DNA from: Psammoneis japonica
Lineage: Eukaryota
DNA length: 64,000 nucleotides
Direction of reading: 5' to 3'
Assembly (NCBI GenBank): GCA_008632985.1
Contig: QPGO01000161.1
Span: 1 to 64,000, forward strand
Position numbers and translations under genes: made by a program
Part shown: positions 19,998 through 64,000 of the stretch, piece by piece
Layout of the letters: every line of letters begins with the position of its first letter
Position numbering within the stretch: position 1 is the first letter of the stretch
The notes under the pieces: model-generated
The model's input: only the letters and a program-made list of their open reading frames with translations
Database searches by the model: none
Told to the model about the DNA's origin: nothing

Positions 19998-20324
19998 TTT
20001 ACCATGCGAGAAACATGAAATGGAAATTCTCAGATTGATTTTGTTGAGATTGTTTGTGCATAGTTTGCCGAATCGGTTGACCGTAGTTTTTGATAAAAAA
20101 ATAAGTTGCTTGATTCGTCATCGATTGAAACGCACTGTTAAACTCGAATGAGTGAGCGTGTGTATTTTGCGCTTGTGGCAAATAAACGGAGTAATAGCGA
20201 ATTCGCTTTACAAGCGGGACATTGCCATCGCGACTGTACTCTGGCTCTTGCTTGTTTCCTCTATCTTTCTTTTCCTCATTGGCACCCCCCTCACAAAGAT
20301 CGCAGCTCCGTGTCAGCGTCATTT

Positions 20325-20760
20325 TGTATCTAAAGGGAAGAGTCAGATTTGGATTCTCGCAGAAGGTGGTGCAAAAGCTTGCGTCGACTCATGATGGCAG
20401 TCGATCAAGACTCTCAACTCTGGTCAGACTGGCTCTAATTAGAAGGCCGTTACTATTCTTGGCATGGGCCGCAAAAAAGGGTGATAAGATGCGAAAGTTT
20501 GAATGAGATTTGATGTGGGATGCGAAACTACACACCCAGATTTGAGACAGTCTTTTTGAGATTAGCCGATATATCGATATTGAAAGCATGTAGCAGTCGC
20601 AAAAGGCGGTGCAACCATAAAAGCGCCCATACGATAGAGCAGATGAATTAGACGAATGACACAAAAACACATGCTCCGTAAAAGACAGCAACGCACCGTT
20701 TCTACTGTAATGAAAGTGCTTTGCGTGAGTGAATCATCACACTCGTTCAACTCCAATAAC
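20325..20760 (+). repeat. Downstream flank and repeat X, copy 3 (unmutated)
   Basis: Matches 9650-9945 and 6085-6290 and retains its TA and CG dinucleotides. Confidence 0.8.
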
Positions 20761-21154: not shown

Positions 21155-21994
21155 ATGAAGGCTTCTGGTGACAGCACGCTGTCATTGCTCGAGCTTGGAG
21201 ACGACGTCGTTTCTCAAGTGTGTACGTTTCTCGACGTCAGGGCGCTTTGTCGTTTCGAGCAGTCTTGTCGACGTGGCGTTCGTTTCACCCCGACTGCGTG
21301 GCATCGATTGAGCCAAGACAAAAGTGTACATGATGAAGAAACCAGTAATGACGCTCCACGCATCATTGTGGAACGTCGACATCGGCTCATTTCGTTCGCA
21401 ATGAGAATGAAACAAGAGGCCGACCAACATTATGGCGGTTACAGTGATCATGAATTGATGGACGTTACTTGTCCTGGTAAATGCAGTCTTCCCATGTTTC
21501 TTGATGTTGCCATGCCCATAGCTTCCCCAGAAAGTTACCGTTTCTGTTGCCATTATGGCGGTTACAGTGATCATGAATTGATGGACGTTACTTGTCCTGG
21601 TAAATGCAGTCTTCCCATGTTTCTTGATGTTGCCATGCCCATAGCTTCCCCAGAAAGTTACCGTTTCTGTTGCCATCTGTCCTATTTGGACAATATTCAA
21701 GAGTTCTGTTTCCCAGCCTTTGATGTTCTTCCCGCTGCTGGATACTTGTCTCCCTCATTTTATGATTTGGATCTGCCAGAAGAAGAAGACCTATTAAAGC
21801 ATTTTGCAACGATTCGATCTCATAAACTTCCTATTCAGAGCGAATGGCTGAAGACTTTACTGTTTGAACACAGCGTTGGTTTGAGATCTGGAACACCAGA
21901 GGACGAGTATTTTTCAAACCTCCGTATCGTTGTAGCCGTTGCAAGAGGGGATGACGCTCGCAGTTTGTACCCCTCGCTACTGCACCCATTATAA
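21155..21994 (+). CDS. F-box-like protein with an internal exact 41-aa duplication
   Basis: N-terminal LLELGDDVVSQVCTFLDVRALCRFEQSCRR resembles the F-box consensus. The 3' end is uncertain. Confidence 0.55.
   Translation: MKASGDSTLSLLELGDDVVSQVCTFLDVRALCRFEQSCRRGVRFTPTAWHRLSQDKSVHDEETSNDAPRIIVERRHRLISFAMRMKQEADQHYGGYSDHELMDVTCPGKCSLPMFLDVAMPIASPESYRFCCHYGGYSDHELMDVTCPGKCSLPMFLDVAMPIASPESYRFCCHLSYLDNIQEFCFPAFDVLPAAGYLSPSFYDLDLPEEEDLLKHFATIRSHKLPIQSEWLKTLLFEHSVGLRSGTPEDEYFSNLRIVVAVARGDDARSLYPSLLHPL
21428..21673 (+). repeat. Exact 123-bp tandem duplication (in frame)
   Basis: 21428-21550 equals 21551-21673, with cat microhomology at the junction. Confidence 0.95.
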
Positions 21995-23399: not shown

Positions 23400-26300
23400 T
23401 CATATTGTTGACGCAGAGTCCAGCTCATCAGGCACAATTGTGAGTTTTTTTGGGTTGGTGGCATTTTTCGTGCGTTGGGTCGTGCATGAAAGCCTACGTG
23501 GAAAAATGATCATTGCCCCGTCTATTGCCCTTGAGACTTTTTCTCGCCACTGACTGTTGAAATGCGCGACCAAACACTTGTTGCACTCACGCACTGGCGG
23601 TCGTGCGCATGGTCAGCACGGTTGCTTTGTGTGAAATGTTGATGCCGCACAACAACGCACAACACAGTGTGGCTGGGCATGTGCAATTCTGTGTTGGTGT
23701 GTGCAACTCCAGCTCCCAAAAGGGGTGACATCATGTGCCTTGCCCCCAGGTCAGATGTGCAAAGAACCGCTGTGGTCAGCTCAACAGCTTTTTGGCAGCG
23801 GGGTGTGTGCTTTGTTTCATTTTGCTCATGGCAGAGAGTGCAGTTTGCCCCCAGGTCAGATGTGCAAGAAACGGCGGTGGTCAGCTTGACACATTTTTGC
23901 AGCGGCGGCATGTGCTTTGTTTCATTCAGCGCACTGTGGTGCTCTGACACAGCAGGTGAAAAACACAGGGTTTTTGTCTCTTTCTCATGCAGGCAAGTGT
24001 GGCAGCAATGTGTCTTGGTTTTGTTTGTGTGCACAGCATCCTTGCCAAACCTGTTGTTTGTCCTGGCTGGTCATTGGCACAGCCCATTGTTGACAGATGC
24101 AAGCAGGGCATTGTCAGTGTGCTGCAGCACATCAGCACCCATTGTGCTGTGCACAGTGTCAGGGCCAGAGCTGTGCTGTTGCTCTCACTCAACAAAAAGA
24201 GCACTCAGCTCTCCAGCTTCTGGAGGGAGGCAGAAGTGCCATGCTGCCCATGTTGCTTTGGCCAACAAACAATGGCCATGGATGTAAAATTTGCAAACAT
24301 TGTGTGCTTTGCTCTCCCCTCAGCCACCACCACACATCATTTTTGGGGGGGGTTGCTTGCAAAAAAGGGGAGCACATGCTGAGGTGCTGTTGATTGTTGT
24401 GGTGCTCCTTGAAGGAAATGCTGTTGAGAAAATGGCAACAGCAGAGGTGCCATGTTGGGTGGTTTCCATGGTTTTTGGCTGCACTGCACCAATGGCGAAC
24501 TCATCTGAAACTGAGTCTCACACTTGTTGAGTTGGTGTGGCTGCCATTTTGCCCATCATGTGCCCACCATTCTCCTCAGTGGTGGGGCCAGCAGAAAAAA
24601 ATTGTGAGTCAGCAGAAAAAAAAAACAACTGCAGAGCTTGTGCACACAATTCCATGGGCCAATCTTTGCATGCTGGCCCACCCCAGGATGGGAGTGCATG
24701 CAAACAATGTCGCCAATCACACAAGGGGCAAGATCCTTTTGTGCCATCACTCTCATGAGGATGACAACAAAGTTTGGCCTCCTCCTTTCAGCAGGAACTT
24801 GAGCTGACAACAGGCCAAGGCACAAAGTGCTTCTTGTGAAGCTTGTCAATGGACCCAACTTTCCTTGGCCTCAGAAAAAAAGTTGCTCACCGCCATTGTC
24901 TTGTCAAAGTTGGCTTCATCAAAGGCAACATTTGAAAAATGCAAAGCAAGTGGCAACTCCCTGGAGTGTGCATGTTTTTGTTGTTTCTTCTGAGATTGCT
25001 CATGCTCTTGTTCCACGAATTGAAAAGAGCACATTGTGTGCTGGTGTTTTGATGGTGTCCATGGCGCACCAGTGGGCAAGTTGATGTTTGTGGTGCTCTT
25101 GTGATTTTCTTGGTGTGATGTGCGACACTGTGATTGACGCTCATCAGGCTGTCCATCTGAGCTCCTCGACATGACACCCTTGCTGCACATGCCACAGAAA
25201 CAACATCCAAATGAGTTGTGGTTGGCCAAGTCTCAACAGGGTGGCGCTGGGTGTGCATTCTTTTGGGGGTGCAGGTGCTTTGCAGCTCAAAAAGCTCGAT
25301 GAGCAAATGTGTGATCTTGGGGGGCTGTGCACTGCACCACTCTGGCATCACCAAGAAAACCACAATTTTTGATGACTTCAATGCAAAAGCTCACAAAAAA
25401 TCTTCTCATCTCTGCTCATCTTCATGTGGGTCACAAGCAACAACAAGCAGCACAACCATTTGCTCAAACATCAGCAAGAGACTTGACAAATCTAGCTTGG
25501 TGGACAAAAAAAGTGCAAGAAAGCCACTTGGAAAATTGCTGGCAAATCTCCTTCATCGCTGGCAGCGTGCAAAGCAAAAGATGCCATTTTGGGAGAAGCT
25601 CCAAGAGCAGTTCAACGAGGTGCATCAAAATGCAAATGTGAGCGATGCAGCATTGTTGACAGCATCTCCAGACAATGACAAGCAGAGAAGGCCACTGCAA
25701 ACAATGGTGCTGACACACAAGGATTGAAGCAAGTTGTGTGTGCTGACAAACAAAAAGGGACAGCTGGCCATGCAAAAGTGTCTCCAGCTGTGCTTCTCAG
25801 GGTGTTTGTCAGGAGTGAGAGAGAGAGACACAACATGCATGTCCTGCACAAAGCTGGTGAAAACAATTTTTTAGAACAAGCCAGTGCTCCAGCACAGGGT
25901 TGCAATGGAGCAGCCAGAGAAGCACACTGCACAGCGCGGCATCAACAATCTTTGCTGGCGTCAATCTGCATGTGAGCAAGAGTTGAAAGTGGGTGATCCT
26001 TGAAGGTTGCAGAGTGCAAAATTTGCATCAGCACATTGTGCCAAAATGGCGCCAATGGTGTGGTGTTGACAATTTCATTGATTGTTCATGGTGCACATTG
26101 GGGTTGTGTTCCTGTTGAAAAAAGAAAGTCTCCAGTTGAGCCCCACATTGGTGCAACCCAGAGTGGCAGCAAACTCTGACTTTCTGCCCATTTCTCATCA
26201 TCAACAAGAACATGGCTGGGAGTTTGAGGTCACCTCATCAGGCCCTTGCATGGCAGCTTCAATGCAGCTCAAGCTTGACAAAGAAAGAGAGCAGCAATGA

Positions 26301-29300
26301 CATCACTGGGTGAAATCATTTTGTGTGGCACAGACAAGAAGCTCAAGAAGTTTTCTCATTCTGTCCTTGTTGCTGCATGCCATCATCAGTTGGAAAGAGG
26401 GGAGAGGGGGGTGGATGAGCTCTTTTTGAACAAAGCATTGGTGACTCCCTGGAGTGTGCACAAAATTTGTTGTTTCTTTTCAGATTGCTCACACTCTTGT
26501 TCTGTGAATTAAAATGAAAAACATCTTGTGTGCTTTTTGATGTGGCATCCATGATGCTGGGCAAGTTGATGTTTGTGGTGCTCTTGTGATTTTCTTGGCA
26601 CAACACATGACATTGTGATCAAATGTTCAATGTTCACCAGGCTGTCTGTCTGAGCTTGACATCATGATGCTCAAACACTGCATTTTTTGTGCTTGCATCC
26701 ACGGTTGAAGATTGGCATTGAACTGACCCCTCCTTGCACACCGTGCCACACAAACAACATTCAAATGAATTGTGGCTCGCCAAGTCAACAGGGTGGTGGT
26801 GGATGTGCATTTTTTGGGGTGTGTGGGGGGAGACTTTGCTGTTCAACAAGCTCAATGTGCAAATGTGTGATCCTGGGTGTGGGGCCGCACTGCACCACTC
26901 TGGTGTAAAAATCACAGAGAAGACCTCATTTTTTTGTTGAGTCCACTGACCTCAATGCAAAAGCTCACAAAGAAACTTCTCATCTCTGCTCATCTTCATG
27001 TGGGTCACAACAAGTGACAAACTGCACAACCACTTGCTCAAACAGTGTCCTCCAGCACCCAGTTTTCTCATGCTGTCCTTGTTGACATGCTCCATTGTCA
27101 TGTCATGAGACAAATCAGAGGACCCATGAAGAAAGCAAAAACCAATGACAGACATGCTCTCCAGCTCCAGCTCCAGCTCCAGCTCCAGGTGGTGGTGGCA
27201 CCCAACATGGCTGCTGATCTTTCACGTGTGGATGTTTTTTTTTTGCACGCAGCACAACACCATCCACTCGACAACTTTTTCATGTTTGTTCACACACAAT
27301 GCCTCCTCACAGAGAACAAAAAGCTGCTGGTGGCAAAACTGTCGTGTGCACATTGATTGGCGCAAACTTTTTTTTTGTGAGAGATGGCTCACTTTTTCTT
27401 GGCCAATGATGTGCACATGTGTGTGTGTCTTTTGCAGTTGTCTGCGCCACTTCTTGTGCTCTCCTCAGGTCAGTGCTGCTGGTGGTGTGGCGCTGGCTCT
27501 TTGTGGCCCCAAAAATTCAAAAACACCCATCATTTTGTTTGTGTGTGTGTTTCAATGGTGTCCATGTGTGGTGATGGGGATGTTTTGAGGCGCTCTTTTT
27601 TTTTCTTGTTTGCGACATGGCTGGAACATGCAATTCAATGAGGCGTGTGTTGCACATGAACAGTTGCATTTTGGGCAAACAACTCCGAAATTCAGCTCCG
27701 ATCCCACAACATCACATCACAATGTTGAAACGGACAAAGGTTTGGCATGCTGACCATGTGCTTGTGATTTGAATGCTGGCGATTTAATCCATGGGATTTT
27801 GATTGTAACATGATGGAGTTGGGGTCTTTTTGCATTGTCCCCCACAATTTGTGCATTTGCAGTCTTCGACAGTGCTGCCATTGTGAAGAGCATGTTGCTG
27901 GAAGTTGTTCTTGATGGCTGAACGTGCCGATGGGTTGGAGTTCATCCCACACCTTGGGAATGGCGCCATGTCCTCTTGCAAATGCGTTTGTGGACAGGCA
28001 TCCTGCAAGAAAATCTCTGAAGCATTTGGGAGTCTCGGCAACATTCAAGGTTTGCATGCCCAGATGCCAGCGGTGAGGGAAGGTGCGAGAAAGCAGAGCT
28101 TTGGGAAGCTAAAGCAATCCAAGTTTGGCCGCTGCATGGATCACCTTGGTGGAAAAAATGCATTGGGTAATGTGAGCAATGAGACCTTTGACAAGTGCAG
28201 CCAAGGGTCAAAACCTGCTGCCAGCACCAGAAGCACTGTCAATGGCCCAAAGCACAAGGCCAAGAATGTGGCTTGGCATCATTTCCACCCGGTCATCATC
28301 AAGAAGGCATGCAACCCAGTGTCAAAGAGCTGCATGTGCATTGACATGATTCCATGTCAGTTTGTCCACGAGAGGATTGGCGCTGGCAATGGCCACACGA
28401 AAGAAGACTGACATGGTGATGAAAAGTGCACTGTGGTTCCAAGCTGTGTTCATGCTGCCGATGACTTGAAGATGCTGCAGTGCCGAAAGTCATTGGAGGA
28501 CAACACATTGGAGTAAAAACAGAGATGTCGACAGCAACCAGCAGGTCTGGACCATCCTGCGGGTGTCTCTTTCATGTGGAAGACAACTTGTCCATGTGCC
28601 CTTGGCTTGGTCGCAGCAGTGGTGCTCCATCTTTTGCTCCCATGCTCGCAGTCGCCTTCCTTTGGTCAGAACTCAATGCTGCCACCCTCACAACATGTGA
28701 GCAACTGGCGGAGGATTGTGGCACGCCGATTGATGAAAATGGACGCAACACATGATGCATTTCGACACATCAATCGCTCTTTGTCTTGATCCACCACCGG
28801 TGTTGATGTGTCCGCGAGCGAAATCTGACAGAAAACATCAGAGTGCAGCTGTTCACGCAAAACATGCGCCTTGTGTTCACTTGCACAAAAACGGTCCCTA
28901 ACTTGCGATCAAACTTTCACCACCAAAAGTGTGGATTTACACAATTGTGAATGTTTTGCAACACTGACAAGACTCGTGTGAGTGTTGCAATGTCATCGTC
29001 ATTGTGCCATCTGTGTTTTTCATTGCGTTAAAAGATTCGCAACACAGTGGATGATTTTCAGCGAAAACATTGCCATCATTTGGATGTTGCCCAAACGTGT
29101 CTTTCTGCCATGCTGCTTGGCAGGTTTTCTACCTGCAAAGAAATCTCAGTGCAAATCCACTGACTGACGTGCAATCAGCATTGAGTCTGCTGAGAGAAAG
29201 TTTGTGATGCATGTCCCATGAGGACTTGAATGCCCCACAAAAAACTGTTTGAATGTTCATGCTCTACAAGCCTGCAAAAGTCAATCCATCCAAGCATTTT

Positions 29301-29780
29301 ACATGAAAACAATGCATGCACTAAAAGATGCACAATTTACACTCAAAATCGATTGTCGTTTTGTGCGTCACCTGGGACTGGAACACGTCACAAAAGGCCT
29401 TGACAATGGTTCTTTGTCCTCTTCACAGAAGCACACACACTTTTTTTTTTGGAGAAAGATGGCTCACTTTTTTGGGGGGAGAGATGGCTCACTTTTTTTC
29501 TTGTTTTGGCGCCAGTGGTGCACACACGTGTGTCGTTTTTTGTTTTGTTGTCTGCTGGTGTGCTGCTTGTGCTCTTGTTGCGCACTCCTTTTTTGAGAGG
29601 TCAGCACACTCGTGTTTGTGCCCCAATTTAAAAAAAAAACGCAAAACAACACCCATCATTCTGTGTGATGGGGATGTTTGTGGCGCTCTTGTTGTAATTT
29701 CCTCTTGTCATTGACGTGTGACATGGCTGATGATTCAACGTTCGTCAGCTCGCTGTCCGATCGAGTCGGAGCTTCGACAA
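23400..29780. mobile_element. Large TpA-depleted degenerate repeat/TE block, unclassified, with internal duplications
   Basis: TpA nearly absent. Internal repeats 23741-23845/23846-23930, about 24950-25480/26435-27040 and about 27365-27625/29445-29730. No diagnostic transposase recognised. Confidence 0.6.
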
Positions 29781-30171
29781 CATGATGATGTGTTCGCAAA
29801 TAAATGTCGCATTTTATGTCTACCTACACCATTGTAGATTCGCATAAAACCAACCCCTCCCTGTACATTCTACACAAATTACACACCAAACACAGCATTT
29901 CCGCGCGTGCGTCGTATATAGAAATTTAGTCTAAAAAATGTTGGGCTAAACAAGAATCAAACATTTATTTATATTTGTAATTAGAGATTTGATATAAAAT
30001 CAAAATGACTATCGAAACTGCATCAGTCGTGTAGCTTTTGTACCACACGTTGTGTAGAATGCACTTGAGTATACTCTTATATATTCATTAACATTCATAT
30101 TCCACCGTTGCCAATCCCACGATGCGTGTCGCACGCTCCACATTCACAACAAACAAAAACAAAACAACACC

Positions 30172-39361: not shown

Positions 39362-39519
39362 GATAGCAAAGGGAGTGCTTTTCTTTTTTCTATTGACAAA
39401 TCGGTTGTGCTCATGGCGTTTGTTTGACTTTTGTTCTTGTGTTCTCATCGAACTGATGTCTCGAAGAAATGAAACATACAAACACGACGTAAATCATTGA
39501 AATTTTCCAAAAAAAACTC

Positions 39520-40861
39520 TCACGAGGGGGCACGGTCGGTCAGACCAGGGATTTTGTTCGAGCGCGCGCACCGCGCCGCAGAGCGATGCGCGTGTTGGTT
39601 CGCCTCTTGAGAACTGAGCATGCGACAGCTCTGTTCACAGCACAGAGCAATGGTTTCCTGAGCATGACACACACTTTCATCACCTCTGGAGATCAAGAAG
39701 AGCAACTTTGGCATTGTTGCTTGAAGAGATTTGACACAATGTGATGGTGTGGCTCGAGGGGGCACACTGCCAAGTGTGCTGCCATCCTGGGTTTGAGAAA
39801 CTTTTGAACACATCACGAGGTTTTCCACATGTTTCTAAGTGACACATGCACCCAGCACCAAATCCATGTAAAAAAATCAAGCTCCACAGCAAAGACACAT
39901 TTTTTCACATCTCGAGCCACACCAATCATGTGCACCAAAAATGTGGCACACACCCTGCTGCGGCCATGCACTCGCCCCAACGGCCATTGTGTCTGAGAAG
40001 GTGAGAATGCCAAGACAGGTCAACAAGACTGTGCTCAGTGCAATGATGTGGATGAAATTTTTATTTTTTCCATTTGTTGCACCTTGTGGATGGCCTTTTG
40101 ACTCCCCTTGATGTTTCAGACTTCTCTTTTTCTCTTCTCTTTCTCAGATTGCAGGAGCACAGGGAGCCTCCACAGCTCTGGACTCTGTTGACTTGGTGCT
40201 TGCCACAAACAACAATGTGCATCTTCACGGTGCATTGGTTTGTTTCTTGTGATGCATTGAGTGCTCTTCAAGTCATCGTGGATGATGCTTTTGGGTCAAG
40301 AAAAAACACCAAATTTTGGTGCTCACAAAAGAATGACCTGCACTCAGTTTTTTAGGGTTCGAGGCAGTTAAGAAGCCTTTGGACAAGTCTGATGGGTGCA
40401 ATGTTGCAAAGTGGAACAAAAAACATTGTTCAAGATAAAACTGGTTCTTTTGAGCATTGAAATGTTGTCAACATTTTGCTGTCTCATCTCTGCTTCTGTG
40501 TTTCAAATGACCAAATTGCCCCACATTCATCAAACATCGACTCTGCCAATTCAGTGCCAGCGTGCAACTGACTCAAGAGTCCCACAAAAGTCAACAAATC
40601 AATTGATCTTTGAAGCAGTTGATTGCACAAAAAATGCACGATGCATGTGCCAAGCCAGGTTCACCGATTTTTCTTGTAAAAAAAAAGGAGTTGGGGTGCC
40701 TTTTTTTTGGCACAAACTCTTTGCACAATGAAAAATGCACAATTCTTTCAAAATGGTCAGATGCAATGAAAAAAAAAACAGCAGAACAGTCTTTCAAATG
40801 TGCCTGAAAATGAAGAGGAAGAGAGCCATCTTGGTTCAAGTTGTGGTTGTTCAATGACAGT

Positions 40862-40896
<35 letters not shown>

Positions 40897-43800
40897 CATG
40901 GCTGGAGCACCAACAACAAGACATGCAGAAAGCTCATGCACTGGGGCTGAAAAAGTGATGGCAAGGAATGAAGATCATTGAAAGCCCATGCACTGGAGCT
41001 GAAAAAAGTGTCGGTGATGAGTGAAGATCATTGGTTGTTGGCATTGCATGCTTTGGCAATTTTCTTCACATGTGCCAAAGGTTGACAGTTTTCCAAGGCT
41101 CTGACCATTGATGATGCCAGCTTGGACATTCTCTGATTTTTTGCTGTGCTGCACAACATGTGCACAGTGCATGAGCCACCAAGAAAAGATGGCAAAAACT
41201 GTTGACTTTTGACAAGATGCTGATGAAAGCAGACAGCATTGCACCAAAGAACAGCAGTTGTTGTCACAAAACTCTCAATGTTTTGCAGCTCGACACCAAA
41301 TCTGCAGTGTCCAACCTCACTGACCTTTTTGCTCTCTGGAGCATGTGGGCCACATTTGGCAAAATGGGCCAAGAACATCTGATCTTGTGACAACCCACCT
41401 CTCTTTTCAAAGTTGGCAGATGCACCTGGATGTGCAAATCACAATCACAGCCTCACTTGGTCATCTTTCCTGTTGTCACAGGAGGTGTGGTTTCTGCGCT
41501 CACCCCAGCATGATTTTTTAAATGCACCTCAGCCTTGGAAATGACACAACAGCCAAAGCCATCAGCACCTGCCTCTGCAGGCATTGCTCTGGCAGCCCTG
41601 CAATTCTTGGTGGCATCTTTGACAATGCGTTTGTCATCCTCCTGTCTCTTCATCTCCCCAGGACACCAGCTGTGGGCAACTCAGCATTTGTTTGTTTTTG
41701 CCATGTGTGCTGATGAAGCCAACTGCATGTCCTTTTGCAGCAATGTGATGTTTTGTGAAGGCAGCAATCCAGGTGCACCAGCAGAAAATCTTGGGGCAAC
41801 TGCTTGACACTGCAGACAAAGTTGAGCAAAGCAGCTGATGGGTTTTCAGAGAATGACAGCCTCTCAGTTGCAGACGCAATGGCACTCTGCCACTTTTGCC
41901 ACACGCTCATCTGTTTTGCCAAGCTGCTGTTGACACCAACACATTTGAAAGCAACGCCACAGTCCATGCTGGTTGGCACCCTCACATTTCTTGTTGTCAG
42001 CCCCCCCTCCACAAACTCCTGGCAGGTGAGTTCTTCTGAAGTTGTGGCCAAACCCTTTGCTCCAAGTTGCGGCGCCATGTCTTGTTTCTCTGCTGTCAGG
42101 CAATGCCACAAATGTGAGCCTTTTTTTGGCCTTGTTTTTGTTCTGCTCTCCAGTCATTTTGCAATCAATTCAGGCCACAACACAACCTCCATCTGCAAAT
42201 CTCTCAAGAAATGAGTGCACACCGTGTCCTCTGACACACAAGAAAAAGGACAAAGCACAGTCTTGCAACCCCCCCCCCCCCTCCTCCCAATGACTGGGGA
42301 TGGGAGGGGGTTTGTTGGCCTAAAGAAAATGTTTGTGTTCAATCTCAGAGCAACAACAATGGCCTGTCATGACAACAGAAGATGGCATTGTGCAGCATCA
42401 TGGTGACACACTGACAGGGTGGTGACACAGGGGTGGGTGCCCCTTGCCCCCAAACATGTGTTGCCTCCTGCTTGGTGCACTCCAGAGTTGGGGATCAGAG
42501 CAAACAACCTGCTGTTTGAGTGACTTTGGCTGAAATTTGCAATGCATGATGTGCTCCTGACTCCATGCTGGTGCCTTCTGAGCTGAGTGCAGCATGACCA
42601 AGCTTGGTCATCAAGCCACTTGAGGCATGCCACATCCTCACCCACCCACCCAGCATTTGCTTGGAAGATGTGCTTCAATGCACTCTTCATCTGGCTCAAC
42701 ACGCAAACACAAAAAGTTCTTGTGATCTTGCAGATGACTTCACAGTGCATGTCAAGGCACAAAGTTGCCAACCTTGCCAAAATTTTCTTGACCTTGAGTC
42801 CAGTCAAAGCCCAGACAAGTGCTTGAAATTGCTCAATCCATCAGCAGCAAACATTGCCTGTGATTCTTCCTGTGCACATCAATGTGTTTTCTTTCCCCAA
42901 ACCTCACATGCGGGTGTCCAAATTTGTTCTTCTGCACAGTTCACACAGCACAAATCACACAGGTCCAGATGTGGGCACTTTTTGAACACTCCTGGATGCA
43001 AGGTTAAACTTCATCACCCTGCATTGTTCCACTGGGTTCCCCACCTGATGTTGGAGTGTTTGATGCTTCATTCCACAGAGGATGGGAGAGCAGTTGATCC
43101 ACTGCTTGAAATTTAGAGCCAGCACAGCCCACAGCACTGATGTTTTCTGAGCTTGGAAGGCTGCTTCCAGATCAGGTCAAATTGTGGCTTTTCACCTGAG
43201 AAACAAATGGGACAAAAAATTCATTGCAAAACAACTTGACATTGGAAGAATCTGGATGCACAGCAGGTGAATGCTGAAAGAGCTCAAATCTCGGTCACCA
43301 AATGATGCATTTGTTTGAATCTTGAGTGTTCAACATTTCTGCATGATTCCTTTTTGCTGTGTTGATCCCTCCCCTGATTGGCACCTGTTGGGTCTTCATC
43401 AGCAATCGTCAACAAGAATGGAGAGCATGCCATGAAAAGCAAAAAATGATGTGCCAACAGTTTGAACAGCAGAAGGAAAAAGAAGCTTCAGAGCAAAGGC
43501 AACAATGCCTGGAAGCCCTCCTCTTTTTCAGTTGCCCTGCTGCTTCCACTGGTCTTGTTCAGAGGAGAGAAGGAACGGCGGTGTTGTGCATCTAGCTAGA
43601 GCTGACAATGGCTGAGCCTAAAATCTGATTGCAAAGTGACTTGATGATCAACAGAGCAGCAGCTGCATCCATGAGCATTGTGCGATGGCACTGCAAAGGT
43701 GGCAAGCAGTTTAGATGCAACCTTGGCAGCAGAGTGCGGTCCATCCAATGGGCAAACATGACCATCATTGTGCAGAGCAACAGAGTTGCCAGAAACAAAA

Positions 43801-45265
43801 AACTTTGAGGTCTGGAGCATGCTGGCTTGAATGTTGGAAGGACATTCCACCAATGAGCAGACAGCACCGGGAAACTGGCACCAACCACTGTTGATGGCTT
43901 GCTCTTGGACACCATGGCAGACATGGCAGACTTGACATTTGGCGACACAGCACCAGCAGGATCCATCTGAGTGTTTGCAACAATTGCATTTTCAGCTTGA
44001 GGCATGTGTCAGCAACACTGGAGCTTCTAACAGCAGACGTGGGAGCTGGGTTGAACTTGCACTCTGCAAACCAACTGGAACTTAGAGAAGATGTCACAGG
44101 TGAGGTGAGAAGCAAAAGAGCTGCTGCGTGTCCACTGCAGCAACTAAAAGGTGACACACCATGATTGCTCCAGTCCTTCTGCTGTGAGAAAGGTTGTCTG
44201 TACCCTTTTCAAAGCACACATGTTTCTTGGCAATGTTGAACTGAGAGGTTTCAAGATCATGCCAAAAATGACATTCTTGGTGGCATCAGATGAACACCCT
44301 CCTTGCAGCAGTTAACTTGGCACAGCAGCAGCCGGGTTCTTGGACTCAAACATGACAACCAATTTCAACCTTCCCAGTGGCTTTAGCAATGTGAGCTGCA
44401 TCTTGATCATTGCATGCAACAGATGCAGTGGAAACACCAGAAGACATGATGACAGCCAGAGTGGACAATGTGTGGACCCAATGAGGAGCCACGCGCAATG
44501 CTGCAACAAGATGTCAATCAATGCACGTCAATGAGGGGTTTGCATTCTTTCCTGCGTTGGCTTTCTTTTTGTTTGCTCTGGCAGCTTTCATTGCTCTGTG
44601 ATTTTGTGATCAATTCTTGGTGGGCCTGGCATTTTGAGGTTTGCTGCATTTTTTCCTGCAGTCTCAGAATTGGGTCGATTGTCCTTCATTCCAGTGGCAA
44701 CAGGCTTCCTGGATTCTTTGGCAGATTTGGAGCTTTTTGCAACCACTGACATCAGCAATTTCCATGTCAGATGGCTCATCTTCCAAGAGGATTGACCTTG
44801 GAAAGATCTGTGTCAGATGGCTCATCTTCCACGAGGGCTGTGGCTGGGTTCTTTGTCTTTGCCAGGGCTGATCCAGTCATCTCGCACAGGTTGTTAGAGT
44901 CATCTTGTGACTCTTCATTGCCCACAAAGTGCTCAAATTTGCCATCTTTGGGGGCTGCTTGAGTGCCAGCTGAGTCCAATGCCTTGTTGTTGTTTCGAGT
45001 TGGATGTTTTTTGTTTGCGTTTTTGAGGGAATTTGATCTCGCCTTGGGCACCCGTCTCCTTGCGAGCGGGCGGTGCACCCTTGCGTTTGGTCTTCCTGTT
45101 TGCCTGAAGAGACCCTCTTTGCACCGCCTGCGGTGAAAGCTGTTCTGTCTGTGTCCCTCCAATCAGATGCTACACGCCGTGTGCAGAGCCTCTCTAGAGT
45201 AGAGGTGCAAAGCGGCCGAAGTTATTCTTGCGAAGAGGCCCGACCGCTGCTGTGCCACGTGTGAG
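39520..45265 (-). mobile_element. Degenerate Mutator/MULE-like DNA transposon, TpA-depleted
   Basis: Minus-strand remnants resembling a MULE transposase: CSPILCG, LKWLDDQAWS..RHQHGVRSTSCIA (compare YG..TSN.AES) and a SWIM-like LTCQEF region. RING-like THCPL near 44470. Only weak terminal similarity (tctcac..ggcac..cggtc). Confidence 0.55.
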
Positions 45266-47122: not shown

Positions 47123-49614
47123 GTCCCACAACTAACCGCAAGCATGTCGCGGCTCCACATTGACAGGCAACTCATTTGGAATGCAATCAAAAGTCAATCA
47201 GCAGTCAAAAGTCAAGTCGGTGCAAGCGCTTCAACACATGGGCTAAAGTGGGTCAGGCCCGCAGCACGTCTTCGCCGCTGGAGCTGACACGTCAGAAACA
47301 GCAGAGCCAATCCCTCCCTGCCCTGGGAAGGCTCTGTGAGTAAAAAGGTGCCACCACAACAAGGGAGGGTGGGCAGGTGAAAAACAAAACAACAAGGGGC
47401 CCACCCACATTGTGGGCGATTCTCCAAAAGAGCGACAGCTCCCGGTGTGATTGGCGCAGTCTTTGTGCTCTCATTCTTCCTGCATTTTTTGGTGAGGTGA
47501 ACAATGGACCATTGGACCATTCAATGCAATGCCTCTGCCCCTGTTGACATCATTGGAGTGTTTCTGATGTCACTCTTTCTGAGCCCTTGCTCGCTCATCT
47601 CCACCTCAATCGGGGACAGAGCACACACATGACCAGACAGGGTGGGGAATGGGGCTGCTGGGTCTCATGGCAGGCCAAGTTAAAGACCATGGAAGTTGGT
47701 TGATTTCCTTGCCAAAACTTTGTGTGATGGTTGAATTTTGCACTTGTGAAAGGTGCAAGGTGCAAGGTGCACAAGGCAAAGCTCTTGCTCAACTGACAAC
47801 CCACCTTGCAAACTCCAATTGTGGAATTCCCAACAGCTTTTGTTGCTGAAAAATGCCATTGCTTTCCAACCCATGACCCTTTGTGCACCCCAGCCCAGGT
47901 GGTTCCACACCCCCAAATTGCCTTGAAAGGTCTTCTTGTGGCTGTTTGCCTTTGACAAAATGACTTTTGCACAGCGCAAAATGGTGTGTTCATCAACCCA
48001 TTCTCTCCAATCTCATTTCACTTGCAACTGGGCAATGGTCTGTTTTGGGCCTTGCACTCTTTTTTTGTTTTGTGTTTGACTCAGCTGTTCTTGTGATGGA
48101 CAAAGTGCCCTCTGTCCACTGTGGCAACCTGAGACACTCAGCAAGAATTTCACAATTGCAGGCTGGCAGAAAAAGAGTGCAAAAAAATCCATCAGCACCA
48201 ACAACTGAGCCTCAGCTCACTCACAATTTGCCACCAAGGACCGTTTCTTTTCTGTTGCCATGTGCATTTCCTCTGTTGTGTCGAGCGATGCAAGTGTGTC
48301 AGTTGATTGTGCCAACAAATGGTGAAAAAGGGTCCAAAGTTAATGCCATTGCTTGGGCTGCACTTCACTTCTGCTCACATCTTCTGAAACTTGTCAATCA
48401 ATGAATGTTTCATCAAGTCTGTGAGAGCAACTTGGCGACACGTGCTGCCAAGAGGGGCAATGGTCAAGTCTGTGAGAGCAACTTGCACTCATGCACATTG
48501 ACAAAAGATCATTTGTGTTGCACTCAAGAACAAATTTATGTACAAGAACATTGGTTTAATGGTTTCTTTGCACATGAGTGCATTTGTGAACAATCGCTCA
48601 TTGGAAAACAGAGGTTTCATCTTGTGGCACAATTTGGTGGTCAACAACTTGGTCCATCCTCAGATTTGGATGCATGGGCACATGCACAAGACCTTTCTGC
48701 ATGTGCCCATGACAACACATTTGAAAGTCATTGTGTTTCAATTGTTCCAGAAGTTTGGACTGTGCTTTTCATGCAAAAGGGGGCATTTTTTAGTGTGCGC
48801 ACACATCTGAGTCTGGAGCAAATCCTCATTTGTCTGTTTGTGCCCATCAATTTGTGTGGTGTGTGGTGTGTGGTGTGCACAATCTGCACAAAACCACCAG
48901 CACCAAACAGCTCACATGCACTTCCTCACAAAGATGTTTCTTCCACACAGAAAAGTGCCAGGCTTTTTGCCCACCATCACATGTGGAGTTCCAAGTCACA
49001 AACAGCAATCTGTGGGTAAAACCTGGTCTACAATCTCTGTCCTTTTGACAATGGAGTGCAACACAGTGAAGTGCAAAGGGCACCATGGCAGTCTTTGGGT
49101 GCCATCATCTCAAAATCCGGTGGGGGGGGGGGGGGGGGAGGGCACGACATTTTTGATGCATTCCAGCCCCAGGTGGGAGCTCAAAGTGCTGGAGTGTGAC
49201 ACAATCATTTTCATTGTGCACTGCTCTTTCACAGAATTGCCCCACCACACTCCCTGTTTTGTGAAGCCCAAGACTTTTCACTCAGCACACTGCACACTTG
49301 CGGGGGCAACAGCACACATGGGCATGCACTTTTCACCAATGTCTGAAGAGTGTGCTGGGGCAAACAAAAAACAGTGCACTTTAATCATGGATGAGTTTGT
49401 GTGGCAAAATTGCCTCTTTTCTGTTGGCGATCATTGGCACATTCTCATCAACTGGTGACTTTGCTGTGGAGCTTGCACAAAGAATTCTGTGGGCCCAGCA
49501 GCATCACATGAGGAATCCCCACCTGCATCTGGAGCATGTGTTTGACTTGTCAGCCACCCTCTGTTGGATTTTGCGACAACAGCGCCCGAGACGCGTTCCA
49601 GGTCTAGGTGGGAC
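47123..49614. mobile_element. Degenerate TIR DNA transposon with GTCCCAC...GTGGGAC termini and a 4-bp TSD (CTCG)
   Basis: ctcg|gtcccac at 47119-47129 and gtgggac|ctcg at 49608-49618. Interior TpA-depleted. Superfamily not determined. Confidence 0.65.
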
Positions 49615-49954
49615 CTCGCACTGCTGAACTGTGACATCGACAGTTTTTTGAATCACGTCGTATGTCGCGCACGTAGATTTCTACGTGATTTTTTTGATAT
49701 TTTGTGTCATTTTAAGGTACACTTATTGAGCGATCCGTCCAACAACTTTTGACATTTTTTGTTACAGCGCGATTCTATAATGTCTTAAGAATCGCGTAGG
49801 GCAGGTGCATTTGCAAAAACGTCGAGTGGTAAGAGGCATAATTGTACCACAAACTTGGCCGTTTATTTGATGTTGAAGATAAATATATCCATTAATTAAA
49901 TTCTCGTACTACGGAGCTCGCACGTAGAATTCTACGGGCCCAATGTCACACGGA

Positions 49955-49992
49955 GTCCCACCTAGGGCTGGAACGCGTCNTTCTCATGTGGG
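49955..49992. mobile_element. Ends of a second, inverted copy of the same TIR family collapsed around an N
   Basis: gtcccacctagggctggaacgcgtc is the reverse complement (2 mismatches) of 49590-49614. It is followed by N at 49980 and then atgtggg. cgga/cggag occurs on both flanks. Confidence 0.5.
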
Positions 49993-50406
49993 CGGAGATG
50001 ACATGACCACACGATGTGCACAGAGCATCTCAAAAATCTCTGGGATGCTCACATTGTCGCATTGTTTCTCTCAACAAAACATTGCTCTTCATCAGCATTT
50101 CTCAGCAACCTTGCTCTTGGTCAGTCGACACCACGTTGATTAAAAAAATTCAATGCAAATCAACAAAAAATTGGAAATGAAGAATGAACACATGAGATTG
50201 CGACATCGAGAAGCACAGACATCTAAAAATGACAGACTTGTTTTGACCGTGCCCGAACATTCAGAGATGCTTTTTCCATTCTTGCAAGCAACATGCGATC
50301 CGCGACTTGCGACTTCTTGTTGACCAAGCAGCAAAACGCGTCTCCTGTGATTCTGGATTCTTCCTTCAGTTTCCTTGAACAAACATTGCAGCTTGCACAT
50401 TCAACG

Positions 50407-53400
50407 ATGAAGAAGCCTGCCATTTCCTTGGCGACACTGTTGCTGTCTCTCTTCGTTGACCAGTGTGTGGGTCAAGCAGGGTCTGCTTGTGATCCTGCAG
50501 TGGGGTGCAACAACGGTCTTCAGTTTTGCGGAACAGACCCATCTTGTCGTTGGTTCTCATGCACCAACTGCTGCGAGTGCGGCCCAACCGATTTCACTGG
50601 TGATGACAGCTCAGCCCAGCTCACCTGCGCGCCTTGTGCTGGACCTGACACCTCGACTTTGGAACCGAGTTTAGGTGTGGTCAAGACGTTGGCGATGCTC
50701 CACTGACGAGGGTGGACTTCAATGAGATTTGTGCCGCCTTGACCCAATTGTTGTCTGGAATCCAAGTTTTCCAGTGCCTCGCACGCGCCAGTGGCACAGA
50801 CTTTTTGGCATTTGTGGCTGAAACACTGGCATTGAACCAAAGCAATCCTTGTGATGAGGGCATTAACTTCTGCTCATGCAGGACCCGTGCCGCTGCCCCT
50901 GGCACTGGGCATCTCACAACCGGAAATCAGCACTTCAACTTCGATGAAACCTTTCCTCCACACTGCATTGACGCAACGCTCTCTGCACAGGCTCCTCGCA
51001 TCACCTCTCCCGCTCCCGGTGACTGTGCCAGCGACAACGACTGTGCCGGTGGATTTGAGTTTTGCGGTGCAGACAAGGCTTGCCATGCTCACTTGTGCAC
51101 CAAGTGGCATGAGCATGGCCACACTGACTTTGCGAGCAACGATGGTGCCGCCAAGCTTTCTTGCACAGAGCTTGCCAGAACAGCACAGAACATTGCTGGT
51201 GTTTCATTCAGGTGCGACAACCCAACATCCACCGATGCAGTTCGTGCGGCCTTTGATCACAACTGCACTGCCACGATGTTGATTTCATCCTTTGAGTGCT
51301 GGGACTGCTTCGAGGGCTGTGACTTTGCCAATTTTGTCAATGAAGCTGGGTTGTCCAGTGTCCAGTGCCAAAATGCTTCTGACACTCCAAGGTGCTGCCA
51401 TGACCTTGTCGCCCAGCAAGGTGCAGCAGGTGCTGTCATTGGGGCGTTTGGTGCTTCAATCGCGTTTAACCAAGAGTTCACCAAGAGGACACTGTCGTCA
51501 ATTGTCGCCGTAAATGGGAGACCTGCTGGGTCTCCCACCCCTGTGGCAACACCTCCTCCGACACCGCTGACAGCCAAGCCATCCACCGGCAGTCCTTCAC
51601 TCACTGCTTCACCCATTTCTTCACCCGCTCCACTTCCCACCCCTGTGGCAACACCTCCTCCGACACTGCTGACAGCCAAGCCATCCACACTGCTGCTGAC
51701 TCCTGAGACCCGCCCCCAAAACGATGACTGCGAAACTGCGACAGTTGTTGAGGAGGAGTTTCTGTTGCTGTTTGAGATAAAAATGTCACAGGGTTTGAGA
51801 GAGAGAGGTGTCCCTCTTTTTTTTTTTCTTCGACAACAACCATCCGGGTTCCTCTCAGTGGTCACGTAGAATCGCACACAAAATGAGCACTAGAATTTGA
51901 GGTGCAGCCACCACAAGATCAAAAACAATGGCAATGAAGCCGGTCCGTTTGTTTGCATTTTCATCACATTGCTCTCTCCAGCGGGGCTTGCTTTTGGAAA
52001 GGCATCCCGAACGACTCAAAGTGATGCTGCAGTGCATTGTTGATCACGTTCAACTGGTGGCAGGCACGGCAAGCCTTGCCGCCGCCGTGCTGAGACTGCT
52101 GAGACAGGGGGTGCAAGGACATTTCGCACTGGCAGTGAACGTCAACTCCAATGTTGGCACAAGCACCATCTCTTTTATGGAGAACTGCCATTCGACACCA
52201 GTCAAAAAAATGCTTTTTGTGCGTGAAGCACACCTTCGTCGCCATGGAGAACTTGAGGGCAGTCAGGCGGATTGGCAAGACTTGCATTGTGGGGAGTTGG
52301 CCTGCCGGCATGCCCACTGCAGCAGCGAAGCGGTGTCGAGAAGGTGGGGTGCCGGGGATGAAGAATTAGAGTGTTCAAGGTTGGTGGTTGGGGTGTCATC
52401 TGAGTGGCACTGTGTTGTCTCGAGTCAATGTCCAATCTCGAGTGGTGTCTTCTCGAGCAGTGAACATCGCATCTCGAGTGGTGTCGTCTCGAGCAACAAA
52501 TGTTGTCTCGAGTGCCATCATCTCAAGCATCATACGGCAGTAAATGCTGCACAACACAGTCTCAAGTGGCATCATCTAGCTGCTGCAGGGCCCCAGTCTC
52601 GAGTGGCATCATCTCGAGCCAGCAAATGTTTGGTCTCGAGCAGCATCTAGCGTGCCCAGCAATGCAACAGTTGCCCTAAAGCATGTCTTCTTGTCCTGCA
52701 CATGGTGCTTCTTCAGTTTAGCATGTGTTGCAGCATGTTTGATTGTGTCATGAAAAAACCTTGTCAACGTGAAAATCTCCGTTTTCCTCGTCGTTGTCAC
52801 CTCATCGCGATCCGAGTGCGAGAGTTGCGACACATCCTCCTCCCTGCTCTGCATTGCAAAATGAACAGGTCGAAGGCAAGTGCAAGCAATTGGTGTAGAA
52901 CAAATGGAGAGAATTTTGGTTCGCACTCACCAATCCGTTTGACATGGAATGGGAGAGATCACACTCTACTTCGCAAATTGGAGTTGTCTTTGAGGTGACA
53001 CGAACAGAGCAGTTTGGGTCCTTCTGAGCTGGCTCCAAGAAAGATGTCAAAAGCTCCTGTGGCATTTCTGGTGCAACTGAAGCTTTCAGTAGATTAGAGT
53101 GGGCTTTGGTTTGTTCTATGATCCCTTTTTGCTTCAGAACAAACACGGTTTTGTCGAAGTGAATGAGAAGTTTCGCAGGTTGCGACCCCTCGGTTTCTCG
53201 CGGGTTTCTGAGCCCTCTTCAGAATCACACGAGCCCAGATTGATGGCAGAACACTTCATACTTCGACTAGATGTACGATCATTGTGTTCGGGTTGGTTAG
53301 TTGCGTGCCGCTTGGCGGCGGAGCAGCGGCGGTCCTCATGGTTGACATCGGTGTGTTTTGATGGTTGCATCAATTCTACTAGCACTTATTTTGTGTACGA

Positions 53401-54680
53401 TTCTACGTGACTACTGAGAGGAACCCGGAAGGTTGTTGTCGAAGGCAAAAAAAAAAAAAGGACACCTCTCTCTCTCGAACCCTTTGACATTTTTACCTCA
53501 AACAGCAATAAATGAAAGTACGGAGGGCGCGTCCGACGAAATTGACGCCACTTCCCTACAATGTATCGGCGTGAGTGTAACGGCACCTGGCGTGTGGTAC
53601 ACAGTGACGGGATCAGGAACGATGATGGAAGCAGATACTTGCACCAGCCAAACGGCACTTGATACAAAGATTGCAGTGTTTGAGTCATCTTGTTCAAGTT
53701 TGAAATGTGTTATTGCTAATGACGATGAGTGTGGAAAAGGGAGCTCGGTATCATGGATTTCTAAGCTTGGCGTTGAATACAAAATTCTTGTTTCAGGATC
53801 TCAAGGAACAGGTGATTTTTCGTTGCGGGTGGCAGAAGCAACATCCGTACGCACAGGATCCTGTCAAGATATACACAAGTCTAAAGCTCTGATTGATCAT
53901 CGGTGTTGCGAAGGCAGCAACTGCAGAAACGTCACGTTTTGCTTTGGCATGATGCTGGCTCACCCAAAAGCTGTCCTATCGGGGTGCTGCGAGTCCTATG
54001 ACGGATGTCGTCAGACGAAACACTTTCTTCGCACACTTGATCAGCTACGAAAGCTTTCAACGGCCACCTTCGTAATTTCTTGTGTCGTCATTTTCTTTGT
54101 TCTAGCCAAGGTGATTATTGTCCTGATGAGCATTAAGAAGTGGATGTGTTCTTGTCGGCAATTGCGCATGCCGTGTAACATATCGACGGCAACATACTAC
54201 CTGACTACGAACAGTCTCATTGTTTTTTTTGAAATTGCCGATCTTTGTCTCAATGCTTCAATCATTGCCATCATGAGTAACCGCAGCCCACAAGACAAAG
54301 CTCAAGCAATCATAGACAACGAGTGCTTTGTACTGCAAAGAAATGCCCAAACAATCGCGGATCTAATCAATGCGTTAGAACCCTTTGAAAGGATTGCAAT
54401 CGCAGAGTTAGTTCTGGACATTTTGGTTATCATACTTCATGCGGTTGAACTTTGGAAAGGGATCCCTGCTGGTGTCAGCGATAGATTCGTTATGGCAGCT
54501 GCATCCATTCTTGATGCTGCCGAGCTTGTACTGGCTGCAGTCAACCTTTACGTGGTTTTGATTCCTGCAATAGAGGGTTTTGAAGAGCTTTTCGACAGCC
54601 TGGGCATTGATCCCATCACTCAAAGCCTATCAGTCCTTGTACCCTGTGTGTTTGCGTGTTGCGGCATCACTTTGCTATAA
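50407..54680 (+). pseudogene. Secreted/membrane protein gene (two Cys-rich repeats, PT linker, PPC-like beta-sandwich, C-terminal TM helices) split by a transposon; 5' half hypermutated
   Basis: Signal peptide MKKPAISLATLLLSLFVDQCVG. Removing 51765-53510 restores the frame: NDDCETATVVEEEFL|NESTEGASDEIDATSLQCIGVSVTAPGVWYTVTG...DTKIAVF..CVIANDDECG..SSVSW. Frameshift near 50670. Confidence 0.85.
51765..53508. mobile_element. Non-autonomous TIR DNA transposon, TA target site (Tc1/mariner-like), about 130-bp TIRs
   Basis: 51765-51895 is the inverted copy of about 53375-53508. Right TSD is TA (53509-53510) and left TSD reads TG (51763-51764). Excision restores the host ORF. Confidence 0.85.
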
Positions 54681-62971: not shown

Positions 62972-63089
62972 GGTTGTGTAGCTCAGATGGAAAGAGCGCC
63001 GTTTCTACTCAGATGATTGCTCGGACGTAGATTCCGAGTCTTGATTCTCATTTCCACGGAGGGCGCTGGTTCAAGTCCAGCCACAACTT
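62972..63089 (+). tRNA. tRNA-like Pol III locus with an intron or expanded anticodon arm; identity unresolved
   Basis: Acceptor GGTTGTG/CACAACT, D arm TAGCTCAGATGGAAAGAGC (A box), T arm GCTGG-TTCAAGT-CCAGC (B box), followed by a T run. About 45 extra nt lie within the CCGT/ACGG stem. Confidence 0.6.
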
Positions 63090-64000
63090 TTTTGCTCCCA
63101 CAGCAATGTTTGCAACGCCAAAACCTCTTTGCTCAAGAGGCCACCCCCATTTCTTTTGCAAACAAAAAAGTCTTGCGCTTTTGTGTGCGACCCCCAAAAA
63201 GAGGAAACTTGGCGGATGGGAGCAGGCTGCTTTTGCACACATCATGTGTGCCAACCCAGTTTTTGCTGAGCCAGTTCAGCGACTGGATTTTTGCATCATC
63301 TGTCTGTCACAAAGAGTCCCACAGTGTGCCAGAGCATGTGTCATGCTCATTTTCATTTCCTGGGTGTGGTTTTTCAGAGTCTTGCGTGCGGCTCCTGATT
63401 GGTGCAAAATGCTCGAGCGATGACGCCCCCCTCTGTTGCGCCCAATTTTCCACACAAGCCAGCAGCCACTGAGCACTGTGGCCATGCTCTTCAATGGTCA
63501 AAATGTTGGGTTGGAGGGTTTTCATGCCTTTGAAGTTGTTTTGCACACAAAGAATGGCGCCCAACAAAGCTTTGCCAAACAAACCCAAAACGCAATGAAG
63601 CGAGCCACCAAACACAGCCATGAAAACAACAGCTCACACACAAAAGTCACTCACAAGCATTTTTTTGCTGAGAGCTCTGACTCAAGCCACGCGTGGTTGA
63701 CACAAGGCCTTCTGTGCACCCTCCCTCAGCTGTGGGAACAAGACCCAAGACTGGTCATGCTCAGCTGGGAGGGCAACTCAAAAAACAAACAAAGCACACA
63801 ACAGCTTGCAGCTTTCACACATGATGAGCAGTTGTGTGCAAAACAAATGCAAGCCAACCTTGGCCTCACTTGGAGGAGACACCAAGCTCCAACCCTGGCA
63901 GCCATCAATGGCATGTGACGCACATGTGCAGTGCACAAATGCAGTCCACAGGAGCTGCACTGTTGATTTTCAAATTTGGAGGCAGCCTCTCCAATCACCA
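63090..64000. mobile_element. TpA-depleted degenerate repeat block, truncated by the window edge
   Basis: Essentially no TpA from 63090 to the end, with TG/CA excess. No domain recognised. Confidence 0.55.

Follow-up and report, generated by a model that had tools for sequence, protein, structure and literature searches.

Why should a single gene show two mutational states, with one half nearly free of the dinucleotide TpA and the other half of normal composition? The question is raised by a locus at positions 50,407 to 54,680 of a 64,000-nucleotide stretch of DNA from the diatom Psammoneis japonica (assembly GCA_008632985.1, contig QPGO01000161.1, positions 1 to 64,000, hereafter the window), where a transposon with terminal inverted repeats (TIRs) separates the two halves of a gene. 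An earlier interpretation made from the letters alone (the sequence-only reading) had proposed that a mutator converted TA to TG or CA in the 5′ half of a host gene. Our analysis covers one locus in detail within one 64-kb window. What remains at the locus is a dead paralog of a gene for a secreted, Cys-rich diatom protein, split by the TIR element, and its missing TpA sites were changed in place to TG or CA. We consider it likely that this reflects a position-dependent mutation process which acted at the DNA level on silenced DNA, after the TIR element had inserted into the dead paralog. The gene is composed of the following parts, given by their coordinates in the window.

49981-50406, plus strand: region upstream of the gene; 2 TpA in 426 bp, both in YTAR context (Y, pyrimidine; R, purine); looks single-copy in read contigs
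50407-50658, plus strand: 5′ half, first frame, with start codon, signal-peptide-like start and first Cys-rich domain (CTNCCEC); 84 codons with 0 Tyr, 11 Cys and 0 TpA
50658-50659, plus strand: frameshift, a 1-bp deletion relative to the paralog; a +1 shift is needed to continue the 5′ half
50659-51764, plus strand: 5′ half, second frame; 369 codons with 0 Tyr, 22 Cys, 10 His and 4 TpA
53511-54680, plus strand: 3′ half, with the remaining NDDC/APGVWY domain and a hydrophobic C-terminal part; normal composition

The second frame encodes the remainder of domain 1, domain 2 (CHAHLC, WHEH, PRCCHD), a Pro/Thr-rich linker and the start of the NDDC domain. The linker is encoded by two 54-nt copies at 51533-51688, which are 98 % identical and 102 bp apart. 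The frameshift is seen in the reads, as an additional G behind 50658 is present in the contigs of the paralog and missing from the contig of this locus, and in the homolog alignment the domain motif (..EFRC..) resumes in the other frame past 50658. With a frameshift and a transposon break, this gene copy is a pseudogene and not a working host gene.

Both halves do belong to one gene, as had been proposed. The reading frame across the element is ...EEFL|NESTEG... with codon boundaries at 51764|53511, and the element plus one copy of its 2-bp target duplication measures 1746 bp (3 x 582), which keeps the frame in agreement with the earlier claim that it is restored across the transposon; divisibility by 3 has a one-in-three chance on its own and is weak evidence. 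Continuity of the protein domain is the stronger argument for one gene. The 'NDDC...C...APGVWY' domain, known from diatoms as a repeated domain, spans the junction, with NDDC left of the element and '...C...APGVWY...' right of it, and the Cys-to-Cys spacing of the joined domain is 28 residues, compared with 27 in homolog P0001, to which the 3′ half is 47 % identical over the NDDC/APGVWY domain.

The compositions of the two halves are very different. There are 4 TpA in 50401-51760 (observed/expected ratio, o/e, 0.06), together with 146 TG (o/e 1.77) and 133 CA (o/e 1.58), whereas 53511-54680 contains 45 TpA (o/e 0.53) and has a CpG o/e of 0.90; these TpA counts reproduce exactly those reported before. 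The difference between the halves (4/1360 vs 45/1170) is significant (Fisher p=1.3e-11), and so is that between the 5′ half and the normal DNA of the window, with 1537 TpA in 39,815 bp (binomial p=4e-18). Tyr codons, also said earlier to be missing from the 5′ half and normal in the 3′ half, number 0 out of 453 in the 5′ half (two frames joined) and 6 out of 389 in the 3′ half. Sorted by codon phase (TAN/NTA/boundary), the 5′ half has 0/1/3 TpA and the 3′ half 6/21/17. As TpA was lost in all three phases, the loss is independent of the reading frame and codon choice is not its cause. With all phases hit and a domain that crosses the junction, the contrast within the gene is mutational and not a matter of codon bias or foreign origin, as the sequence-only reading had argued.

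CpG is similarly frequent in both halves (58/1360 in the 5′ half and 55/1170 in the 3′ half, p=0.63). Some CpG decay is nevertheless revealed by the paralog: the 164-bp stretch 50437-50600 has 7 CpG in the window vs 11 in the paralog, so that about a third of CpG has been lost where the loss of TpA is nearly total. No in-frame stop is found among the 453 codons of the 5′ half. By codon logic the process cannot create one, as TAA becomes TGA or CAA, TAG becomes TGG or CAG, and TpA in NTA or across a codon boundary gives sense codons. The ruined 5′ half is therefore still open, with Tyr turned into Cys or His.

Between the halves lie the transposon and its target-site duplication.

51765-53508, no strand assigned: non-autonomous TIR element, 1744 bp, with inverted ends of ~130-140 bp that are 90 % identical; multi-copy
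51765-51905, plus strand: left inverted end, mutated, with TG/CA where the right end has TA
53370-53508, minus strand: right inverted end with normal TpA
51763-51764, no strand assigned: left copy of the target-site duplication, reads TG
53509-53510, no strand assigned: right copy of the target-site duplication, reads TA

Read-contig depth of the element is 169-567, compared with ~55 for its flanks. Its four open reading frames (ORFs) contained no Pfam family and gave no match to a DDE/D transposase, and since no family was recognised in them the element is non-autonomous at best. It shares terminal inverted repeats, a 2-bp TA target duplication and multiple copies with Tc1/mariner-type non-autonomous elements, the left copy of the duplication being altered in the mutator's own manner (TG). 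It differs from them in that no transposase ORF or Pfam match is present, and the superfamily label comes from the target duplication alone. A metagenome scan with a pattern made from the inverted ends returned 0 loci.

The direction of change is from TA to TG or CA, in place, and four independent comparisons agree on this. The paralog is known only through the differences of read contigs from the window, among 40 of the 302 such differences, which cover a fraction of the 5′ half. It is ~87 % identical over 50437-51536, with 145 differences in ~1100 bp. In the 164 bp of 50437-50600, for which the differences appear complete, the paralog has 7 TpA and the window none; at those sites the window holds TG (4), CA (2) or TT (1). 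The TGC codons at 50569, 50572 and 50578, which encode the three Cys of CTNCCEC, are TAT, TAC and TAT in the paralog, so that the suggested origin of this Cys motif from a Tyr-rich one holds at all three codons. The 33 listed differences comprise 6 of TA type, 10 of CpG type, 2 that together make a CA/TG double, and 15 changes of other kinds. The first two types are one-sided in direction, with the paralog holding TA or CG and the window TG or CA in 6:0 cases of TA type and 10:1 of CpG type.

An exhaustive protein search found 31 proteins at E <= 0.001, only 22-36 % identical, of which the best 23 were aligned and the 8 weakest dropped; a word-indexed protein search, run with the 5′ half, had no match. 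As the exhaustive search returned only distant relatives, the close paralog is absent from the protein collections. Five columns of the second domain have Tyr in at least 60 % of the homologs (16/23, 18/23, 19/23, 13/21 and 20/20), and the window has H, H, W, C and H there. It has no Tyr at any of the ten columns with at least 30 % Tyr.

The ends of the element were identical at insertion, so the difference between left and right gives the direction of change. At 3 sites with TA in the right inverted end the left one carries TG or CA, and at 1 further site it carries TG opposite a CG of the right end; the opposite pattern never occurs, and 3 TpA are still shared by both ends. The target duplication has TG beside the left end and TA beside the right end, which fits a TA duplication with the left copy mutated. 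Other genomic copies of the element have TA at 51979 (CA in the window) and CG at 51954 (TG in the window), these being the two listed differences.

The direction from TA to TG or CA had been claimed before, and the 6:0 polarity against the paralog and the inverted ends without a reverse case both uphold it. The accompanying prediction that nearly all differences in the 5′ half would be TA to TG or CA failed, as only 6 of the 33 listed differences from the ~87 % identical paralog, the sole relative available, are of this type. The limits that had been drawn for the mutated region also have to be moved. It was thought to be bounded by the insertions at 49955 and 51765, but the depletion runs leftward to 47500 and rightward to ~53120-53259. 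The interpretation of one gene, altered by mutation from TA to TG or CA, thus stands, and its domain boundaries and the near-exclusive TA-type differences do not. Three further features define the depleted domain.

47500-49560, no strand assigned: older block nearly without TpA and CpG, the left part of the domain; 9 TpA in 2061 bp, 5 of them YTAR
49585-49979, no strand assigned: small TIR element resembling a miniature inverted-repeat transposable element, of normal composition and dense in CpG, within the depleted domain
53120-53259, no strand assigned: right edge of the depleted domain; RTAY sites number 3 in 53250-53508 and 16 in 53509-54680

The domain forms one continuous stretch from the older block at 47.5 kb to a sharp edge at ~53.2 kb, inside the element and short of the 3′ half. 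It takes in the 5′ half of the gene and the DNA upstream of it, the left copy of the target duplication and the greater part of the element. Per 500 bp, 47500-49560 contains 1-4 TpA (o/e 0.03-0.10) and 2-5 CpG (o/e 0.09-0.19), with TG/CA o/e of 1.6-2.3. Depletion is most complete at 49981-51764, where 6 TpA are left, 5 of them YTAR. The first ~1.36 kb of the element (51765-53120) retains 16 TpA (7 YTAR, 8 mixed and 1 RTAY), and its right ~260 bp is normal in TpA, with RTAY sites reappearing from 53259. The small TIR element at 49585-49979 has arms at 49590-49614 and 49955-49979 (25 nt, 92 % complementary inverted repeat) and carries 27 TpA in 395 bp, 7 of them RTAY. Given its normal TpA and CpG inside the depleted domain, it was probably inserted later than the mutation. 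A single N stands at 49980, right at the end of this element.

Similar blocks are found elsewhere in the window, and the process recurs at their edges. The blocks 10000-16500 (block 1), 23500-29400 (block 2), 39500-45000 (block 3), 47500-49560, 63000-64000 and 1-500 have TpA o/e of ~0.03 and CpG o/e of ~0.1. With the exception of 47500-49560, they were also seen to have TG/CA o/e of ~1.9 and no ORF of at least 250 aa, and these are presumably old, mutated repeats. At most block edges the TpA-free state extends 200-1000 bp past the CpG-free core. The right edges of blocks 1 and 2 are abrupt (within ~100-200 bp) and adjoin TA-rich spacers at 17000-17200 and 29800-30000, with 26 and 22 TpA per 200 bp.

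Block 1 is flanked by a tandem pair of duplicated genes (6759-9815 and 17116-20516), which is 81-92 % identical in the main pieces and 69 % at the block edge. At 9740-9840, in the last ~100-150 bp of the left copy, adjoining the block, TA is changed to CA or TG relative to the twin at ~20.4 kb in 6:0 cases for that bin. The same flank also shows CG changed to TG or CA, and only the copy that touches block 1 is affected. In the repeat pair 24900-25500 and 26390-27080 of block 2, which aligns over 588 bases at 74 % identity, adjacent differences form a CA/TG double 14 times, with each of the 36 other types of double difference occurring at most 4 times. Such doubles are expected if each copy resolved an ancestral TA or CG on its own.

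The loss of TpA depends on its neighbours. Survival in depleted relative to normal DNA is 0.25-0.37 for YTAR, 0.01-0.10 for mixed contexts and 0-0.03 for RTAY, so that the surviving TpA are mostly YTAR (CTAA/TTAG, CTAG, TTAA), and RTAY (ATAT, GTAC, ATAC/GTAT) is almost extinct. The trinucleotides gained most in depleted DNA are GCA/TGC, CAG/CTG and CAC/GTG. Among the CpG contexts GCGC survives best (0.73).

The process described here acted in place, on DNA, on both strands and in a context-dependent manner, within a sharp-edged domain. As TpA is gone from DNA that kept most of its CpG, the process is separable from CpG decay and more complete. In the sequence of events that we propose, a TIR element would have inserted at a TA site inside the dead paralog, and a process working on both strands and in all codon phases would afterwards have turned nearly every TpA into TpG or CpA across the continuous domain. 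The process prefers TpA with a 5′ purine and/or a 3′ pyrimidine, leaves YTAR largely untouched, and acted while most CpG was still in place. It probably depends on position, following a silent or heterochromatic domain rather than sequence repetition, and the domain could represent silenced chromatin that spread from the older block. The chemistry would be an enzymatic change from A:T to G:C, either by deamination of adenine to hypoxanthine or by mispairing of a modified thymine at TpA.

Two other mechanisms were considered and rejected. GC-biased gene conversion does not agree with CpG decay, which goes in the opposite direction, nor with the GC content of the blocks, which is not raised. Stable deoxyinosine read as G would give TG and CA contigs at half depth, and none were seen.

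Several observations weigh against our interpretation. At ~13 % divergence, the paralog differs from the window by ordinary changes in 15 of the 33 listed cases; moreover, its comparison spans only the part of the 5′ half that the 40 of 302 differences cover. One conserved Tyr column is Trp (TGG) in the window, beyond a single step from TA to TG or CA, and His occupies a 'Tyr' column in 1 of the 23 homologs too. We also tried a motif restricted to one strand (TAY to TGY only), but 2 of 6 paralog sites and ~2 of 7 inferred Tyr codons break this rule. Nothing identified the older blocks as transposons: Pfam recognised 0 families in 86 ORFs of at least 90 aa from the blocks and 0 families in read-through frames (stops as X) of the plus strand of block 1 and the minus strand of block 3. 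Depletion also overlaps the stretch of the gene that is duplicated (50437-51562), and repetition may have played some role. Finally, the sequencing run used to confirm the sequence may be the source data of the assembly itself, so this check is not fully independent.

The overlap with duplicated sequence leads to the alternative that survives best, a burst resembling repeat-induced point mutation (RIP), triggered by repetition of the 5′ half and of the multi-copy element, in which position would be irrelevant. Paralog contigs of at least 85 % identity do exist for 50437-51562 and none for the 3′ half, as such a burst would have it. We nevertheless find it unlikely. The upstream stretch 49990-50384 looks single-copy yet is fully free of TpA, the most repeated part, the right end of the element (depth 440-570), is normal, and the paralog retains its 7 TpA in 164 bp; furthermore, the domain is joined to an older depleted block and has one sharp edge. 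Judged from these sequence patterns, position fits best, as single-copy-looking DNA is depleted, the most repeated stretch is normal and the paralog keeps its TpA.

We also considered a technical artefact, with modified bases misread or polishing errors changing TA to TG or CA in the assembly only. Read contigs of a public run reproduce the TpA-free stretches 49990-50384, 50486-50776, 51239-51562 and 51638-51894 at depth 44-53, with 6, 3, 2 and 0 differences from the window, and the 3′ half at depth 57 with 1 difference. For 49990-50384 there is one near-identical contig only, at depth 53, with 6 other letters in 395. As contigs at normal depth reproduce the TpA-free sequence, an error of the assembly only is excluded. 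It is true that the depleted stretches lie on short contigs (255-779 bp) and the normal 3′ half on one 5.4-kb contig, but paralogs and repeats also explain short contigs. At 50055-50056, where the window has TG, the near-identical contig has CA, which could be called an error; it is a single case and could represent two haplotypes derived independently from one TA. With coherent protein-level substitutions, a graded element and an unmutated later insertion as well, an artefact of any kind is very improbable. A second run of the same sample (X2) gave a paralog contig of depth 447 on 50437-51536 and pieces of the 3′ half at depth 3-5, from which no conclusion was drawn.

A composition set by origin or selection, be it that of another gene, a captured fragment or avoidance of UpA and CpG as in many RNA viruses, could be suspected from the discrete TpA-free blocks elsewhere in the window, some with very sharp edges beside TA-rich spacers. 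This is scarcely credible for a locus where the protein domain crosses the junction with the right spacing, the target duplication and inverted ends differ in the direction of the mutator, the paralog and distant homologs keep Tyr, and the loss of TpA spans every codon phase and extends to the DNA upstream of the gene. Equally hard to accept is A-to-I editing of RNA by an ADAR- or ADAT-like enzyme, followed by reverse transcription and gene conversion into the locus, which would account for A-to-G on either strand with a 5′ T, much like the 5′ U preference of RNA adenosine deaminases, but not for upstream DNA that looks non-transcribed, a DNA transposon and a target duplication all changed in place, nor for a locus without retrocopy features, as a retrocopy would not leave a graded edge in the element.

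Two further features of the window lie outside the locus. A glycosyltransferase gene in the neighbourhood has homologs in Nitzschia inconspicua (42 %) and Pseudo-nitzschia multistriata (41 %), with a best match that is 59 % identical, and by these homologs the DNA is that of a diatom. The stretch 21428-21676 is a perfect direct repeat of 126 bp (100 % identity), with copies overlapping by 3 bp.

The preferred process, mutation of TA to TG or CA in a silenced domain, was compared with known systems. Fungal RIP likewise produces dense, one-directional and dinucleotide-specific transitions on both strands of DNA that is silent or repeated; it leaves its mark on the composition and spills over into genes nearby. 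Such spread into single-copy neighbours is described for ascomycetes, for example in an account of the effector compartments of Leptosphaeria maculans (PMC3105345), and the spread into adjacent unique DNA seen here is similar, the analogy being one of behaviour only. RIP makes TpA, turning CpA into TpA by C to T, whereas here TpA is destroyed by A:T to G:C; instead of TpA going up and CpA and TpG going down, we found TpA at o/e 0.06, TG at 1.77 and CA at 1.58. RIP creates stop codons, which the TpA process cannot. It is also an ascomycete process that depends on repeats and on a homolog of the RID-type DNA methyltransferase and takes place in the premeiotic dikaryon, whereas our locus is from a diatom and repeat dependence is not supported: at this one locus, with partial contig data, we saw no duplication trigger with both copies mutated.

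The decay of methylated CpG, found in animals, plants and diatoms, has the same products, TG and CA, acts on silent DNA and co-occurs in the blocks of the window. It cannot remove TpA, however, and here most CpG is kept (58 in 1360 bp) and TpA is gone. CpG decay is present, with the 10:1 polarity against the paralog, but the loss of TpA is the main signal.

Hypermutation by deaminases is known from APOBEC3, which acts on the cDNA of retroelements, and from ADAR hyper-editing of double-stranded RNA, with A changed to G and a preference for a 5′ U. These also give clustered transitions with a preference for the neighbouring base and cripple mobile elements. They act on cDNA or RNA before integration, whereas here the changes arose in place in resident chromosomal DNA, a cut-and-paste DNA transposon and a host gene included, and they are not confined to transcribed or reverse-transcribed sequence. 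In E. coli, CTAG is reportedly lost via very-short-patch repair, as Bhagwat and McClelland are said to have described in 1992. That process, too, erases a word containing TA and enriches words containing CA or TG; it is bacterial, genome-wide and specific to CTAG, whereas in our case CTAG belongs to the spared contexts and only domains show the effect.

In the literature that we could search, which left subscription journals and supplements outside, no description was found of TpA-directed mutation in repeats of diatoms or other eukaryotes, and a local process changing TA to TG or CA is apparently undescribed. We tentatively suggest, as a possibility, that diatoms, or this one at least, have a pathway, for defence or linked to heterochromatin, which chemically converts A:T to G:C at the TpA sites of resident double-stranded DNA faster than methylated CpG decays. 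Such a pathway could use a natural DNA adenine deaminase, or a mutagenic modification of thymine aimed at silent domains. The enzyme, if found, could supply a natural A-to-G editor of DNA.

The locus also serves as a natural control, as the mutated domain covers just half of a gene, of a target duplication and of a transposon whose two ends were identical at first. Owing to this layout, direction and timing can be read without an outgroup genome. There are consequences for annotation as well. Mutated transposons lose Tyr codons and, via CpG decay, Arg codons and escape domain searches, and none was recognised here; DNA that is free of TpA, and so has neither TAA nor TAG, yields long false ORFs. 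If the suggested pathway exists, it would be a mirror image of fungal RIP, sparing YTAR, stopping at sharp edges and scrambling proteins without stops. If the process is real, it would represent regional hypermutation with A:T-to-G:C chemistry at TpA, unreported for eukaryotic genome defence, in an ecologically dominant group of algae.

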